From UHGV virus genome UHGV-0128496: DNA of 16,551 nucleotides; one strand, written 5' to 3'. The notes under the pieces were generated by a model that did not search any database, had not been told where the DNA came from, and was given only the letters and a program-made list of their open reading frames with translations. This DNA comes from a virus. How positions within the stretch are numbered: position 1 is the stretch's first letter; the number at the start of each line of letters is the position of its first letter. Shown here piece after piece: positions 2,275 through 7,873 of the stretch. The position numbers and the translations under genes were made by a program.

Positions 2275-3049
2275 TCTCCTGCTGCGGTGCTGCTGCCTGC
2301 TCAGCTGCCATAGCTGCATCGATTTGCTCACGTAATTTGGTCGCGTGATAATCGTCATCTTCATCCGTGATGGTCTGCGACCAGAAAATGCTATGGCTTC
2401 CGTAAACCATAGGCTCACGAACATCAACGGTTTTAGATACCAGCCAGTCCATGCGGAGTACGTCATCCGGAGTTACCGGAGAGTTGCCAGCCTGGAGAAT
2501 AGATTTCAGCGCTGCCCTTGGCATTGCCGACCAGGCAAGGAATACGTCTGGCCTGTCGACATCTTCTGTCGGGAGAGTGTTTTCTATTTCGTCCAGCGCA
2601 TCACTTAGCTTCTGAAATGCGTCGTCTGGAACAACGTGGCACTCTTCGCCATCAACATCTTGCTGACAGCTATCATCTGCGAGTTCGAATGCGGCCCAGC
2701 AAACATTGAGCAGCATTTCAATAACGCGACGGTGTTCTGCTGTTACGCAATTCTCCGGCACTACCTGCGCTGGCGTGGCAGTGTAGAGCGGAATTACCGC
2801 ATCTCCCATTGGCTGAGACAGGCACTTAAGGTGAAGATCACCCATCTTTGCATAAGCCAGAGTTTCCTCAGCGGCATAAAGCACAGGCTCAGCATTCAGG
2901 ACTTCATCAATCACCTTCACAGCATCAGCCATTGCGTAGCCGAGATTACCGCCGTCGCTTTGTGCTGCTGCGTTGCTGAGTATTTCGCTTATCTGGTGCA
3001 GGCGATCGAGTGATACAGGACCGTGCGCCGGGTGGTTGTTAGTTGTCAT
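2267..3049 (-). CDS. Hypothetical acidic phage protein (260 aa), function unknown
   Basis: Long ORF in the coupled early-left operon; AGGGAGGA RBS 7 nt upstream of the ATG at 3049. Asp/Glu-rich with cysteine clusters; no motif I can assign. Confidence 0.6.
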   Translation of the reverse strand: MTTNNHPAHGPVSLDRLHQISEILSNAAAQSDGGNLGYAMADAVKVIDEVLNAEPVLYAAEETLAYAKMGDLHLKCLSQPMGDAVIPLYTATPAQVVPENCVTAEHRRVIEMLLNVCWAAFELADDSCQQDVDGEECHVVPDDAFQKLSDALDEIENTLPTEDVDRPDVFLAWSAMPRAALKSILQAGNSPVTPDDVLRMDWLVSKTVDVREPMVYGSHSIFWSQTITDEDDDYHATKLREQIDAAMAAEQAAAPQQENV

Positions 3050-3052
3050 GGG

Positions 3053-3271
3053 TTAGTCCTCCCTGTACGGATTTAATTTGTTGTGCAGTTTGTTAAATGG
3101 CCCCCATACGATGGAGCTATACCACTCAGCTATCTTTTCTGCCTGTTCTCCTGCTAACCAGATGAGGACTATCGGTGATATTGGAATCATTAAAATAAGA
3201 AAGAGAAGGAAAAATAGAGCCTCTTTAACACGGCTTTGGCGCGGATAATTCTTCAGGAATATTTTGGTCAC
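3053..3271 (-). CDS. Small hydrophobic (membrane) protein, 72 aa
   Basis: GTG start overlapping the stop of the upstream HNH gene (GTGA). Strongly hydrophobic central segment ALFFLLFLILMIPISPIVLIWLA suggests one transmembrane helix. Confidence 0.45.
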   Translation of the reverse strand: MTKIFLKNYPRQSRVKEALFFLLFLILMIPISPIVLIWLAGEQAEKIAEWYSSIVWGPFNKLHNKLNPYRED

Positions 3272-3645
3272 AAGTTATCCCCCTCTTGATACCGCTCGAA
3301 CCAGAACACAACTGGTGCGTTAGTCTGTTTAACCAGGCCAAATGATTCCGCTGTGCGGTAACTTCTTGACGCACGGCGAGTTACATCAACCTGAGTGGCT
3401 ATGCGGCTGCGAAAGTCTTCTACTGTGCTGCACATTTTGAACAAGTTGCATGGAATGCATGCTGGAACCATGTTGCTGACCGTGTCATTTTCTGGCCTGT
3501 CCATTGCGTAGCCGTTGCTGATATTTCTTCGTACCGCTTCTACATGGTCTGCATGCCACTTATCGCCAAGTTCACAGCCGCAATAAGCACAGCGACCGCC
3601 AAACTTCATGCGCAGTTCTGCACGCTGTTTTTTCGTCAGTGCCAT
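3268..3645 (-). CDS. HNH endonuclease
   Basis: CAYCGC ... WHADHVEAV ... N ... VPACIPCN: HNH core (His-Asp-His, Asn) flanked by two CxxC zinc ligand pairs. Start lies 1 nt from the upstream gene's stop. Confidence 0.75.
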   Translation of the reverse strand: MALTKKQRAELRMKFGGRCAYCGCELGDKWHADHVEAVRRNISNGYAMDRPENDTVSNMVPACIPCNLFKMCSTVEDFRSRIATQVDVTRRASRSYRTAESFGLVKQTNAPVVFWFERYQEGDNL

Positions 3646-5262: not shown

Positions 5263-6180
5263 TTAGGCTGCGGGTTTTTGTGGCTGTTCTTCTTTGTACG
5301 AAAGAAGATCACACATCAGGTTTACTACTTTGCTGAATTGGATTAGATCCGTCCCGGCCTGATGGCGCCATTGAAATGCTTTATCATCTTCATCGTTGAA
5401 TGTTTGGGCTTGGGTATTGATGCGCGAAAAATGGAAATTTTCGGTGAGGATGAACGATACACCGCATCCTGCTAGCTCCATTTTATCAGCGGTAAAGCCG
5501 CTATTAAGGCTATCAACTAGCTCGCTTTGAATTGAGTCGTGTTCAGCTGAGTAGCGAATAACTTCATTTTGATCGGCAAGGCGGGACAGCTGGATATAAT
5601 TGCCGACGGTAAACCCTTCAAAAGCATTGGCCACGCCATTGATATAGTTTTTCAACCGCGTAGTTAAACCGTTCTTAATATCGCTAATGTTGATTGTTTC
5701 TGTTTTAACGGAACCGACAACTTTCACCAGCATAGCCACAGCCATACCGGCAATATTTTTATTGGTCGTATTGACCACTAATAGCTTTTCGTTGGTGCTG
5801 TACAACGCAAGGATCAGCGTTGATTTAACAAATGCCCGTTTACACAGGTCAACGCGGACGCTGTCGATAATTGCTAATCGTTCGATACGTTTGATTTTAC
5901 TCCCGGACATATCTTCGATTCTTTGGATCCGTGCTGCGGCTTCCTTCAAAACAACATGCTGGGGAATGATTTTCTGATCATGGCGGATCACGATGGCATA
6001 CCCACCTGATATTGGGGTGACCAATTCGCCAGTGATCGGGTTTGGCACAAAAGAGGCGCGTGAAAACTCAGTTTCACCAATCTCGGAGTAGGGGAGTTCA
6101 AGCAGATGCCCCTCGATAGCTTCAATGCTAGGTAGTGTGGCGCGGTACACGATTGCGTTACGGAACTTAGGTAATTTCAT
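5263..6180 (-). CDS. rdgC: RdgC-like recombination-associated protein
   Basis: 305-aa ORF whose length and sequence pattern (N-terminal FRNAIVYR, central hydrophobic core, C-terminal acidic tail) match my memory of E. coli RdgC (about 303 aa). AGAGGAAAG RBS 5 nt upstream of the ATG at 6180. Confidence 0.65.
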   Translation of the reverse strand: MKLPKFRNAIVYRATLPSIEAIEGHLLELPYSEIGETEFSRASFVPNPITGELVTPISGGYAIVIRHDQKIIPQHVVLKEAAARIQRIEDMSGSKIKRIERLAIIDSVRVDLCKRAFVKSTLILALYSTNEKLLVVNTTNKNIAGMAVAMLVKVVGSVKTETINISDIKNGLTTRLKNYINGVANAFEGFTVGNYIQLSRLADQNEVIRYSAEHDSIQSELVDSLNSGFTADKMELAGCGVSFILTENFHFSRINTQAQTFNDEDDKAFQWRHQAGTDLIQFSKVVNLMCDLLSYKEEQPQKPAA

Positions 6181-6513
6181 TTAACTTTCCTCTGCACAAG
6201 GTTTTAGTCCATACACGAAGTTAAGGCGGCTGCCACCGCCGAACTTTCTCCATACACAACAGAGAAGGGCACCTGCATTAGTCGGCGGCTTGAGAGACCG
6301 CTTTCTTTTTGCCCGGGTGGATTGGGTTATGAGCCCGTCGCCCGGTGATGCCCTTTTCTGTTGTGCCCTGAAAAAGGCTGGCGGTTACCGGAAATACACG
6401 GGAAAACACCGGGCCGCCAGAACAGGGAGTTACTTGTTATTGCTTTAGCCTGCTTTTAACCACATCAGGCGCGGTGGTATCTTGGTGTTCTCACACAACC
6501 AAGAGGGATGTTT

Positions 6514-6711
6514 ATGGGCGCTTTTGATAACCAGGAAATTACGTTACCCGCATGCCCTAAGTGCGGCACTAAGACGAAGAAGAAAATCGCTTGGCTCAAG
6601 TCGAACAAAAGTTTCACTTGTCGATGTGGAGCTACTATCAATGTCAACAGCAGCCAGCTTACTTCCGAAATCAGGAAGGTTGAGGACAAGCTGAAGAAGC
6701 TCTTTAAATAG
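6514..6711 (+). CDS. Small Cys4 zinc-ribbon protein (about 65 aa), lysine-rich
   Basis: CPKCG-x15-CRCG zinc-ribbon signature. AGAGGGA RBS about 6 nt before the ATG at 6514; an intrinsic terminator follows the stop. It lies antisense to the 3' half of the minus-strand ORF 6544..6910. Confidence 0.45.
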   Translation: MGAFDNQEITLPACPKCGTKTKKKIAWLKSNKSFTCRCGATINVNSSQLTSEIRKVEDKLKKLFK

Positions 6712-6910
6712 TTTTTTATCGACTGATATTATTTCGTTATCAGAGGTTGGTTTTTCAGCCTCTGATTTTTTAGTCAGGATCATTTTTTCTACACATGTGA
6801 CTACGCATTCCGAACAGATGGCAGGTTCGTCCTTACCACCTTTTGCGACGATCTTTATCGCTCCCAGTTCGGTTGCTCCGCAAAATGAGCATGTGAATAA
6901 ATGATTCATG
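6544..6910 (-). CDS. ClpX-type C4 zinc-finger domain protein (N-position early gene)
   Basis: N-terminus MNHLFTCSFCGATELGAIKIVAKGGKDEPAICSECVVTCVEKMI aligns by eye with the ClpX N-terminal zinc-binding domain (CSFCG ... IC-x-EC-V-x-x-C). ATG at 6910 with GGTAGAGG RBS. It is the first ORF downstream of the PL-like promoter. The C-terminal about 55 codons are antisense to the plus-strand zinc-ribbon ORF. Confidence 0.45.
6739..6772 (+). terminator. Rho-independent terminator after the zinc-ribbon ORF
   Basis: Stem atcagagg (6739-6746) / cctctgat (6759-6766) with a 12-nt loop, followed by TTTTT(T). It is not a terminator in the minus orientation because no U-tract follows there. Confidence 0.5.
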
Positions 6911-7018
6911 TAAACCTCTACCCCCAACCTAAGTTTTCTGTCAGCGAATCATCCGGTTATTCATATGCCACCGGCGGCTACTTCGTGGGCGTCCTGCCTG
7001 TTCGCTTTCGATGCAATG

Positions 7019-7048
7019 ACTATAGCTACTTTAAGTAGATAATTGCAA
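7019..7048 (-). promoter_or_regulatory. PL-like leftward early promoter with embedded operator
   Basis: On the minus strand: -35 TTGCAA (7043-7048), 18-bp spacer, -10 TATAGT (complement of 7019-7024). The spacer contains the inverted repeat CTACT-TTA-AGTAG (7026-7038), the same motif found in the cI-cro intergenic region. Degenerate AGTAG half-sites lie at 7057-7061 and 7076-7080. Confidence 0.4.
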
Positions 7049-7110
7049 CAACAAAAAGTAGAAAATGAAATTTTTAGTAGTGTAGTGTTATGAGGTGAGG
7101 AATTGGAGGC

Positions 7111-7140
7111 GTAAAAAAAACCGGCTTTCGCCGGTTTCTT
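7111..7140 (-). terminator. Rho-independent terminator ending the cI transcript
   Basis: Stem CCGGC (7121-7125) / GCCGG (7130-7134) with TTTC loop, flanked by A8 on the plus strand. On the minus strand this reads hairpin plus U8, 14 nt past the cI stop. It is much weaker in the plus orientation (TTTCTT). Confidence 0.6.
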
Positions 7141-7153
7141 GATGAATTAATTA

Positions 7154-7873
7154 TTAGCCAAACTCTATCATTTTTAGAGGTAAGCATCTGATTAGCTTGC
7201 CGAATATGTATAGTTCATTCATTTCATGCTCCTCTATGAAGAAGGGCGGGTAATGTTCATTGTCTGAAAGAACTGCCAGTCGGCGCCCTTTTACCTTCTG
7301 CAAACGTTTAACGAACGTACTGTCTTCAAAATTGAACACATAAACGCCGTCGCCGCTGAATTGTTCAACCTTGCTGTCTATGAAAAGCAGGTCCTTTGGG
7401 CAAAGCGTGGGCATCATGCTATCGCCATCAACATTTATCATGACGATGCCATCAAGGCTTCTACGACCAAACAACTCGAAGATCCTCTCTTCTGGAATCT
7501 CTATTGAGCTCACTATTGTAGGGAATGGTTGGTTTATATATCCGGAACCGGCTGAAGCATGAACATCCAATTGCTCTATTCTGACCGTGCCTTTGGCTGG
7601 CGCGTCGCCACCATTAACAGGCACACCATAATCAAGATAAGCCGGTGAGACGGCAAGTCTTTCTGCAATTCGAATCATCTTCTCATCTCTCGGCTTTGCA
7701 GTACCAAGAGTGTAGCGCCGCGCCATCTCATACGAGACACCACTGAACTCTGACAATTCTTTAACTCCAATAGATTGCTCTTGGAGAGACCTGTTTAGCC
7801 TTTCGGCAAAGTCTTTGTATTTAGCATTTTCCACCATAAGTAGAAGATTAAGCGCACAAGGCATAGTTGTCAT
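7154..7873 (-). CDS. cI: CI-like prophage repressor (N-terminal HTH, C-terminal S24 LexA-type peptidase)
   Basis: HTH segment VKELSEFSGVSYEMARRY; S24 self-cleavage signature VDGDSMMPT (Ser) and FVKRL (Lys). Coordinates are the maximal ORF. The in-frame ATG at 7837 (MVENAKYKDF...) is the more likely start: a PRM-like promoter (-35 ATGACA, complement of 7868-7873; 17-bp spacer; -10 TAATCT, complement of 7845-7850) would place the transcript start at that ATG, giving a leaderless mRNA as for lambda cI. Confidence 0.85.
   Translation of the reverse strand: MTTMPCALNLLLMVENAKYKDFAERLNRSLQEQSIGVKELSEFSGVSYEMARRYTLGTAKPRDEKMIRIAERLAVSPAYLDYGVPVNGGDAPAKGTVRIEQLDVHASAGSGYINQPFPTIVSSIEIPEERIFELFGRRSLDGIVMINVDGDSMMPTLCPKDLLFIDSKVEQFSGDGVYVFNFEDSTFVKRLQKVKGRRLAVLSDNEHYPPFFIEEHEMNELYIFGKLIRCLPLKMIEFG

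Follow-up and report, generated by a model that had tools for sequence, protein, structure and literature searches.

A predicted zinc-ribbon gene in a reverse-oriented cassette, and the apparently chimeric reading frame opposite it, beside the repressor of an e14/SfV-like prophage

When two opposed reading frames share the same DNA, which of them is a gene, and what keeps the other one open? The question is raised by UHGV virus genome UHGV-0128496, a stretch of 16,551 nucleotides (hereafter the window) that we identified as the immunity region of an e14/SfV-like lambdoid prophage. A plus-strand open reading frame (ORF) of 65 amino acids (MGAFDNQEITLPACPKCGTKTKKKIAWLKSNKSFTCRCGATINVNSSQLTSEIRKVEDKLKKLFK; ATG 6514 to TAG 6709-6711) is opposed by a minus-strand ORF of 121 amino acids (6544-6909, counted from its ATG), and the 168 nt from 6544 to 6711 are open on both strands. 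The two frames are exactly codon-registered, plus position 3 lying opposite minus position 1. An initial annotation of the sequence had described for the plus ORF a Shine-Dalgarno (SD) sequence, a hairpin with a T-run terminator and an antisense overlap, and all of these are present. It had also placed the whole plus ORF inside the overlap; the overlap itself stands, but it takes in plus codons 11-66 (168 of 198 nt, 85% of the plus gene) and leaves codons 1-10 outside. The comparisons described below point to the plus ORF as a conserved gene carried on a mobile cassette, and to the longer minus ORF as a frame that probably reads through that cassette.

The plus-strand zinc-ribbon gene

Judged by its homologues and its pattern of substitution, the plus ORF represents a genuine gene, conserved, ancestral and under selection, and an origin as a chance shadow of the minus frame is essentially excluded. 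An exhaustive phmmer search returned 331 homologous clusters (E≤1e-3), mostly of 62-76 amino acids, that align end to end. C14, C17, K23, W27, C36, C38 and G39 are conserved in the family alignment, and the four cysteines are invariant or at least 90% conserved across 47 sequences. The ratio of nonsynonymous to synonymous substitution rates (dN/dS, Nei-Gojobori), calculated for the plus frame over the overlap, was 0.10-0.32 in 20 of 21 pairwise comparisons. The exception, 0.73 for L029 versus L030, concerns two near-identical sequences and comes from very few substitutions. Conservation of the minus frame alone was the outcome that the initial annotation had named as fatal to its proposal; purifying selection is instead clear in the plus frame. 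Within the Photorhabdus clade, DFGGH in the minus frame becomes DLCCH or DLCSH without any change in the plus protein. Distant homologues (53-57% identity) stand alone as genes of phage switch or early regions; in two of three, the registered antisense frame is interrupted by 2-4 stops.

The translation signals are equally stable. An SD sequence, GAGGG (6503-6507), lies 6 nt before ATG 6514, which matches the start codon position of all homologues in the alignment. A second in-frame ATG at 6508 directly abuts the SD and is therefore not a likely start. Start, stop and the 65-codon length are kept in nearly all examined loci with 60-100% identical copies.

From the conserved cysteines and an AlphaFold2 (AF2) model, the plus protein is predicted to be a Cys4 zinc ribbon. 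The model has a predicted local distance difference test (pLDDT) score of 82.6 and shows four short strands, the zinc ribbon and a C-terminal helix (residues 46-63). The zinc ribbon had been recognized in the initial annotation, but with a spacing (CPKCG-x15-CRCG) that does not hold: the motif reads C14-P-K-C17 ... C36-R-C38, that is CPxC-x18-CxC, and its second knuckle is CxC. When the plus model was compared with known structures by Foldseek, the nearest entries in PDB were generic zinc ribbons only (E≥0.1) and the best viral match in BFVD was an uncharacterized protein (E = 1.7e-3); neither database gave a functional lead. Pfam and PHROGs contained no family above threshold for the plus protein, only sub-threshold matches to generic zinc ribbons, and a PADLOC scan of both proteins and their relatives found no match. 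Our guess is a nucleic-acid- or protein-binding regulator or an exclusion factor, because the protein combines a Lys-rich ribbon with an amphipathic helix and is typical of phage switch regions. A metagenomic protein of 216 amino acids (P0027) joins a cold-shock domain to a C-terminal zinc-ribbon domain and weakly matches the retron Se72 effector model; this fusion may hint at an RNA-related role.

The gene is rarely seen in annotation. Its subfamily was called once among 5.8 billion predicted proteins (P0001), and one older GenBank record calls it; RefSeq annotates only the minus ORF in the records inspected. Gene callers favor the longer antisense ORF, and RefSeq consequently misses a conserved prophage gene. 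The gene is present in 39 of 5426 complete Escherichia coli genomes, including that of the probiotic strain Nissle 1917. A tblastn search of 50,697 GenBank phage records gave a single match, partial and unannotated. Viral contigs were scanned with the subfamily alignment, the broad family alignment having no sufficiently conserved block, and a metagenome scan added no new lineages. Literature searches on the accessions, ECs_2282 and YnfU returned nothing concerning the locus.

The reverse-oriented cassette and the minus-strand ORF

The plus gene sits in a cassette of ~330 bp (about 6447-6775, reaching ~6797 in the window's clade), and the region 6447-6775 is 100% identical to that of E. coli Nissle 1917. 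Three contexts were found. In the window, L044-L046 and L056 the cassette comes immediately after the repressor, toward pL; in L029 and L053 it lies at the lysis-terminase junction, and in L054 between terminase and gpW. In all three contexts the zinc-ribbon gene opposes the host operon. Prophage SX12, whose ClpX-type zinc-finger (ClpX-ZnF) gene has 67 codons for amino acids, is without it. As read from these genome comparisons, the cassette is a modular, moron-like insert in reverse orientation. The site beside the repressor had been suggested earlier as one suited to morons, and the anatomy agrees: a candidate promoter block, a terminator, and absence from prophages that carry the 67-amino-acid ClpX-ZnF protein.

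The minus ORF begins at the ATG at 6909, with GAGG 7 nt upstream, and runs without an in-frame stop to 6546. The part that matches ClpX-type C4 zinc fingers, as delimited by PF06689 and by the limit of homology, covers amino acids 1 to ~38 (6797-6909, minus strand). PF06689 matches amino acids 6-41 only (26.2 bits versus a cut-off of 27), and C7xxC10 and C32xxC35 are present. Stand-alone ClpX-ZnF prophage homologues have 66-67 amino acids, and their homology to the window ends at ~6797. The remaining 80 amino acids gave no family match and have no homology to ClpX-ZnF proteins. They form a read-through tail (amino acids ~39-121 plus the stop at 6544-6546; 6544-6796, minus strand) on the antisense strand of the cassette. 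By this homology limit, the annotated 121-amino-acid "ClpX C4-type zinc finger protein" is a chimera in which the final ~80 residues are encoded by the reverse complement of the cassette.

This changes the description of the overlap, which the initial annotation had taken to be the C-terminal third of a ClpX-ZnF ORF. The overlap is 46% of the 121-amino-acid ORF, and the cassette-derived, non-ClpX sequence (6544 to ~6796) makes up ~60%. The overlapped part is read-through and not ClpX-ZnF sequence; this tail recurs, at 52-87% identity, joined in frame to at least seven unrelated N-termini. These partners include ClpX-ZnF, an AlpA helix-turn-helix protein, Phage_P22_Y8K6, coiled-coil proteins (143 and 226-231 amino acids) and others. 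The tail also occurs as stand-alone ORFs of 73-92 amino acids with their own SD and ATG. Its stop is always antisense to plus Leu11 (TTA or CTA). In the AF2 model of the minus ORF the pLDDT is 58 overall and ~50-64 in the tail.

A candidate promoter and 5' leader block (6447-6513, plus strand) precedes the gene, and ~60 nt of it (6447-6508) are near-invariant. Within the near-invariant part are a -35 element, TTAACC (6456-6461), 16 nt upstream of a -10 element, TATCTT (6478-6483), the latter with a TGn extension (6475-6477). Across lineages the variants are TTAACC or TTCACC at -35, a 16-17-nt spacer, TGn-TATxxT and the SD. A strict consensus scan did not list TTAACC-16-TGnTATCTT; from the consensus match and the conservation we infer that the block is the promoter of the plus gene. 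The block is near-invariant in 10 of 13 cassette lineages, whose coding regions have diverged to a proportion of synonymous differences (pS) of ~0.5 in the plus frame. At 82-89% identity it also stands before unrelated small ORFs in ~430 other E. coli records. These include ymfI of the K-12 element e14 (113 amino acids; block at L095 1501-1572) and ORFs of 63, 75 and 77 amino acids (L097, L098, L099), the ORFs of 63-77 amino acids being in Rac-like and CPS-53-like prophages and convergent with the pL operon. For three of these four ORFs there is an overlap of 14-63 nt with the 3' end of the gene opposite (63 nt for ymfI/ymfJ); no gene is annotated opposite the 63-amino-acid ORF in L098. The block appears from this distribution to be a portable expression module for small genes facing pL in e14-, Rac- and CPS-53-like prophages.

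Two inverted repeats lie in the block, IR1 (6459-6463 and 6474-6478) and IR2 (TCTTGG 6480-6485 and CCAAGA 6499-6504), the latter extending from the -10 hexamer almost to the SD. Compensatory double changes are seen at two of the six IR2 base pairs, 98.6% of the alignment cells are paired, and the arms occur as TCTTGG/CCAAGA, TACTGG/CCAGTA and TGCTGG/CCAGCA. Because its 5' arm overlaps the -10 element, IR2 would act as a DNA dyad or in minus-strand RNA. We rejected a CI operator, since the same arms are found with different repressors and in late-region cassettes and are unlike the CTACTT/AAGTAG palindromes near pL. A LexA box was also rejected in an informal comparison: the arms are spaced 15 nt apart versus 10 nt in the LexA consensus.

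At the other end of the cassette, a terminator scan gave an intrinsic terminator of the plus gene with a 12-bp stem and a 4-nt loop (6739-6766, plus strand) followed by T6 (6767-6772). The predicted fold has a free energy of -22 kcal/mol (z = -5.2), and none of 200 shuffled sequences folds as well. In the clade of the window, L044 and L004 compensatory changes maintain the stem, whereas the minus-strand residues encoded there drift (SEAEKPTSD, SGAVIPTPD, SEIEKTIPD). Since the stem is preserved while the minus peptide drifts, this stretch evolves as a hairpin and not as protein. In minus-strand RNA the hairpin is followed by AACGAAAUAAUAUC and not by a U-run.

The neighboring genes, annotated or inferred, are rdgC (5263-6180, minus strand), the CI/LexA-like repressor gene (7154-7873, minus strand) and, to the right of the repressor, cro-like and YmfL-like genes. 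A consensus scan indicated a candidate pL promoter, TTGCAA-18-TATAGT (7019-7048, minus strand), between the repressor gene and the ClpX-ZnF ATG, with palindromes CTACTTTAAGTAG close by. It is convergent with the plus gene, ~520 bp away, and would drive the minus ORF. Directly downstream of the repressor gene, the hairpin AAACCGGC...GCCGGTTT followed by T8 (7113-7140, minus strand) is probably the cI terminator between cI and pL. At 80-97% identity, the segment from the candidate pL to the ClpX-ZnF start (6941-7063) has matches in ~1,400 E. coli genomes as well as in many Salmonella, Shigella and Yersinia phages; it is without an annotated feature. A structured RNA in the conserved pL leader (6941-7005) was unsupported (minus-strand fold z = +1.25), and an Rfam scan of the whole window (E≤1) gave no match. 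Between rdgC and the cassette, a short element (window 6311-6365; L001 about 3000-3600) is common to SfV, SfII, ST64B and mEp460-type phages. It belongs to a two-piece match which, in the SfV record, covers a terminator feature and orf33. The interval from the minus-ORF stop to rdgC is 251 bp longer in strain FAM21845.

What keeps the antisense frame open

We consider it probable that the locus is an overlapping pair expressed in alternate states, in which a real zinc-ribbon gene lies in a reversed cassette and the pL-driven ORF reads through it. The cassette would have entered the 3' end of the first pL-operon gene in reverse orientation, next to the CI/LexA-like repressor, and the recombination junction would have removed the native C-terminus and stop of a ClpX-type zinc-finger gene. 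With the native stop lost, the ORF would read through the cassette in the registered antisense frame until it met the complement of Leu11 (TTA). In the lysogen, pL would be repressed and the plus gene transcribed alone, its transcript ending at ~6770, before reaching pL and cI. Upon induction, transcription and translation from pL would cross the cassette in the opposite sense and give the 121-amino-acid fusion, and the plus gene would probably be suppressed by convergent transcription and antisense pairing. The inferred elements of this account are promoter activity, expression timing and transcript interference, together with a tail that would need openness rather than a particular sequence. 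The corresponding first pL gene of e14 is ymfJ; late in the SOS response it shows strong induction, as does its protein, and ymfI is induced only weakly (PMC11002266).

Whether the antisense frame is under selection of its own was addressed with 19 sequences gathered by a plus-protein query to avoid ascertainment bias. An earlier sample came partly from matches to the minus-ORF protein and was biased; the plus-discovered set and a model that takes account of codon usage weakened the P-values. For the null, evolution was simulated down a synonymous-distance tree with selection on the plus frame only and was calibrated to the observed pS and proportion of nonsynonymous differences (pN). Over the overlap the minus dN/dS (Nei-Gojobori) was 0.5-1.1, and the value expected under plus-only selection has a median of ~1.9 and a 5-95% range of 0.83-6.3. 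Codon usage is well known to give rise to codon-registered antisense shadow ORFs, and of the antisense frames the registered one stays open most easily, since its stops arise from sense TTA, CTA and TCA only. Given the codon usage of the window, the chance of an open registered antisense frame for the plus protein is ~0.11. The initial annotation had argued that such an arrangement is unlikely to be accidental; homology and substitution pattern bear this out for the plus ORF, but an open registered frame is not rare by itself. The non-overlapping leader of ~30 codons in the 90-amino-acid minus ORFs has too few sites for dN/dS, and no frame stood out there.

Several observations weigh against purely passive read-through. 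The antisense frame was open in 19 of 19 distinct sequences with the same end codon, and in each case an ATG or a gene lay upstream of it in frame. Under plus-only selection ~10-13 of the 19 are expected to be open, and the probability that all are open was 0.005-0.013 with uniform synonymous codons and 0.059-0.084 with the codon usage of the window. Amino-acid identity in the minus frame, compared with the null, gave P from 0.008 to 0.73 depending on the calibration, and it is the P of 0.008 that runs counter to passivity. Lysine in the plus ORF is encoded by AAG at 10 of 12 codons, 6 of them invariant across 16 sequences. The genes of the window use AAA for Lys in 57% of cases, and two-fold codons ending in Y vary freely in the plus ORF; the AAG bias would fit a preference for Leu over Phe in the minus frame, or an avoidance of A-runs. 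Codons 17-29 and 50-66 of the plus ORF have frozen synonymous sites.

The remaining adverse points concern the plus gene and its terminator. In four lineages the plus gene is damaged while the minus frame is open: L094 (IMGVR_UViG_2585428140_000002) has W27 replaced by a stop and has lost the ATG, L025 and L076 carry C36Y and L055 carries C17R, all with the antisense ORF intact, and L024 and L082 have a 1-nt deletion in the plus gene and a minus ORF that runs past its usual stop. Some of these damaged copies are from metagenome assemblies and may reflect sequencing or assembly errors. The canonical terminator is found only in the clade of the window, L044 and L004; most lineages are without it. 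The hints of extra constraint in the antisense frame are not fully explained by passive read-through. Taken together, the data are suggestive of stop avoidance in the minus frame, and selection at the amino-acid level in that frame is, on these alignments, unproven.

One rival account is true dual coding. The tail of ~60 amino acids ([IV]DKxLFKQLLQLVLNLPDxGS...LEPSDFLLRLSAALRACG) would then be a functional domain overprinted on the zinc-ribbon gene, traveling with the cassette and joining varying N-terminal domains, and both proteins would matter, possibly as partners. Its fullest form would be a mobile dual-coding antisense module among the lambdoid prophages of Enterobacterales, inserted in reverse into operons, with both frames selected and the two proteins never made in the same state: the lysogen would make the zinc-ribbon protein, and lytic growth the one that bears the tail. 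The common end codon in all 19 open frames (with the low P of the uniform model), minus identity above the calibrated null at P = 0.008, the frozen codons and the AAG lysines that are Leu in the minus frame speak for it, as do the seven or more unrelated in-frame partners, the stand-alone versions with SD and ATG, and L094, in which the plus gene is broken and the minus frame is not. The tail itself, however, has a minus dN/dS of 0.5-1.1 and a pLDDT of 50-64, and it undergoes radical GG to CC changes beside an unchanged plus protein. The part that encodes the hairpin evolves as RNA structure, the leader is without a coding signature, and under the codon-usage-aware null the probability of full openness rises to 0.06-0.08. 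Distant plus homologues lack the antisense ORF, and shadow ORFs are a familiar result of codon usage. We regard dual coding as a tentative possibility, and the mobile two-protein module as equally tentative.

The frame might instead be kept open for the sake of translation itself, with ribosomes covering the pL or late mRNA and so blocking Rho-dependent polarity downstream, the pairing of that mRNA with plus-strand RNA, or both. This would fit an antisense frame whose openness is conserved and whose sequence is not, and whose N-terminus can come from whichever ORF lies upstream or from a short leader that carries an SD of its own. It would also fit the recurrence of the arrangement at three positions, wherever the cassette is inside an operon, and the antisense stops in two of three stand-alone relatives that are not embedded. 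Such shielding would be incomplete, however, for ~360 nt from the minus stop at 6544 to rdgC at 6180 hold no convincing long ORF, and the stop-avoidance statistics are borderline. Lambdoid late operons, moreover, are normally protected by Q-type antitermination. We think translational shielding rather unlikely.

The long minus ORF could also be only an annotation artefact, if pL transcripts or their translation stopped before the cassette and only a short ClpX-ZnF peptide were made; the terminator stem can form in minus-strand RNA too, and ClpX-ZnF homologues are complete at 66-67 amino acids. There is, though, no in-frame stop between 6909 and 6546, the minus-strand hairpin runs into AACGAAAUAAUAUC and not a U-run, downstream early genes such as rdgC need the pL transcript, and the e14 equivalent, ymfJ, is strongly induced together with its protein (PMC11002266), all of which makes an artefact improbable. 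Finally, that the plus ORF is a chance shadow, or a source of antisense RNA only, and the minus ORF the sole protein-coding gene is how the RefSeq/PGAP records inspected read, gene callers almost never calling the plus ORF, but it is scarcely credible against a 331-cluster family with conserved Cys, Trp and Gly, a dN/dS of 0.1-0.3, a conserved start, stop and SD, a confident structure model and stand-alone members whose antisense frame is closed.

Significance and relation to known systems

Much of what the locus contains is already known: morons, small zinc-binding prophage proteins and convergent promoters near immunity regions. The combination is unusual, namely a hidden conserved gene, an 85% overlap retained in all sampled lineages and contexts, a host ORF reading through in every case, and a portable promoter module shared with unrelated genes. 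The locus is a concrete and checkable case of systematic mis-annotation. Well-supported antisense overlaps of protein-coding genes in bacteria are rare and contested, and the evolutionary sample here is unusually favorable, with many lineages, three insertion contexts and at least seven fusion partners. Because mutations that are silent in one frame are possible, whether and why selection keeps the antisense frame open is directly testable. Interest in the locus would be higher if the tail were functional.

Morons such as bor and lom of lambda and those of HK97 and HK022 are autonomous units of promoter, ORF and terminator between lambdoid genes and are expressed from the prophage. The cassette resembles them in having a small ORF, a candidate promoter of the sigma-70 type and, in the window's clade, a terminator of its own, and in being present or absent between related prophages. 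The lysis-terminase junction and the flank of the repressor, where it occurs, are classic moron sites, and its gene runs against the flanking operon, as lambda bor does. Unlike morons, the cassette is embedded in the coding 3' end of an ORF of the flanking operon, whose frame stays open. Its promoter block is portable and common to unrelated ORFs, and expression in the lysogen is here predicted.

YnfU of the Qin prophage in E. coli K-12 (NF038384) is a zinc-knuckle protein that was found by ribosome profiling and tagging (bioRxiv 10.1101/511675). Both it and the window protein are small Cys4 zinc-binding proteins of prophages that annotation had overlooked. Against NF038384 the window protein scored 16.9 bits (E = 0.0034), below the cut-off of 36, and 33 of 47 relatives of the plus protein matched at E<0.01, with a best E of 8.8e-9. 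The window protein differs in its CxC second knuckle, an extra C-terminal amphipathic helix and a conserved KTKKK-x2-W. The two are related at most at the superfamily level.

A parallel in position is provided by ymfI/ymfJ of e14 and the equivalent convergent pairs of Rac-like and CPS-53-like prophages. They occupy the same slot, where the first pL gene after a CI-like repressor meets a convergent small ORF, and the same block is present at 82-89% identity; the 3' ends of block-bearing pairs of this kind overlap by 14-63 nt. The ORFs are, however, unrelated to the zinc-ribbon protein, and the short overlap contrasts with one that takes up 85% of the plus gene here.

The pairs described for the E. 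coli antisense overlapping gene candidates nog1, ano, laoB and pop, from the Neuhaus/Scherer work (PMC5960689, PMC9927249, bioRxiv 10.1101/2020.11.18.388249) likewise consist of long ORFs on opposite strands, the longer of which is annotated. In those pairs the embedded ORF is young and supported by expression. In the window the hidden ORF is old and conserved, it is the tail of the annotated ORF that is questionable, and the evidence is evolutionary.

The regulatory geometry recalls lambda oop/cII, P22 sar/ant and the face-to-face pR/pL promoters of 186 and P2, in which a promoter also faces the early operon near the immunity region and transcripts overlap. By analogy, mutual interference of the lysogenic and lytic programs is plausible at this locus. 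In those systems, however, the antisense transcripts are non-coding or overlap only briefly, whereas the one in the window encodes a conserved protein.

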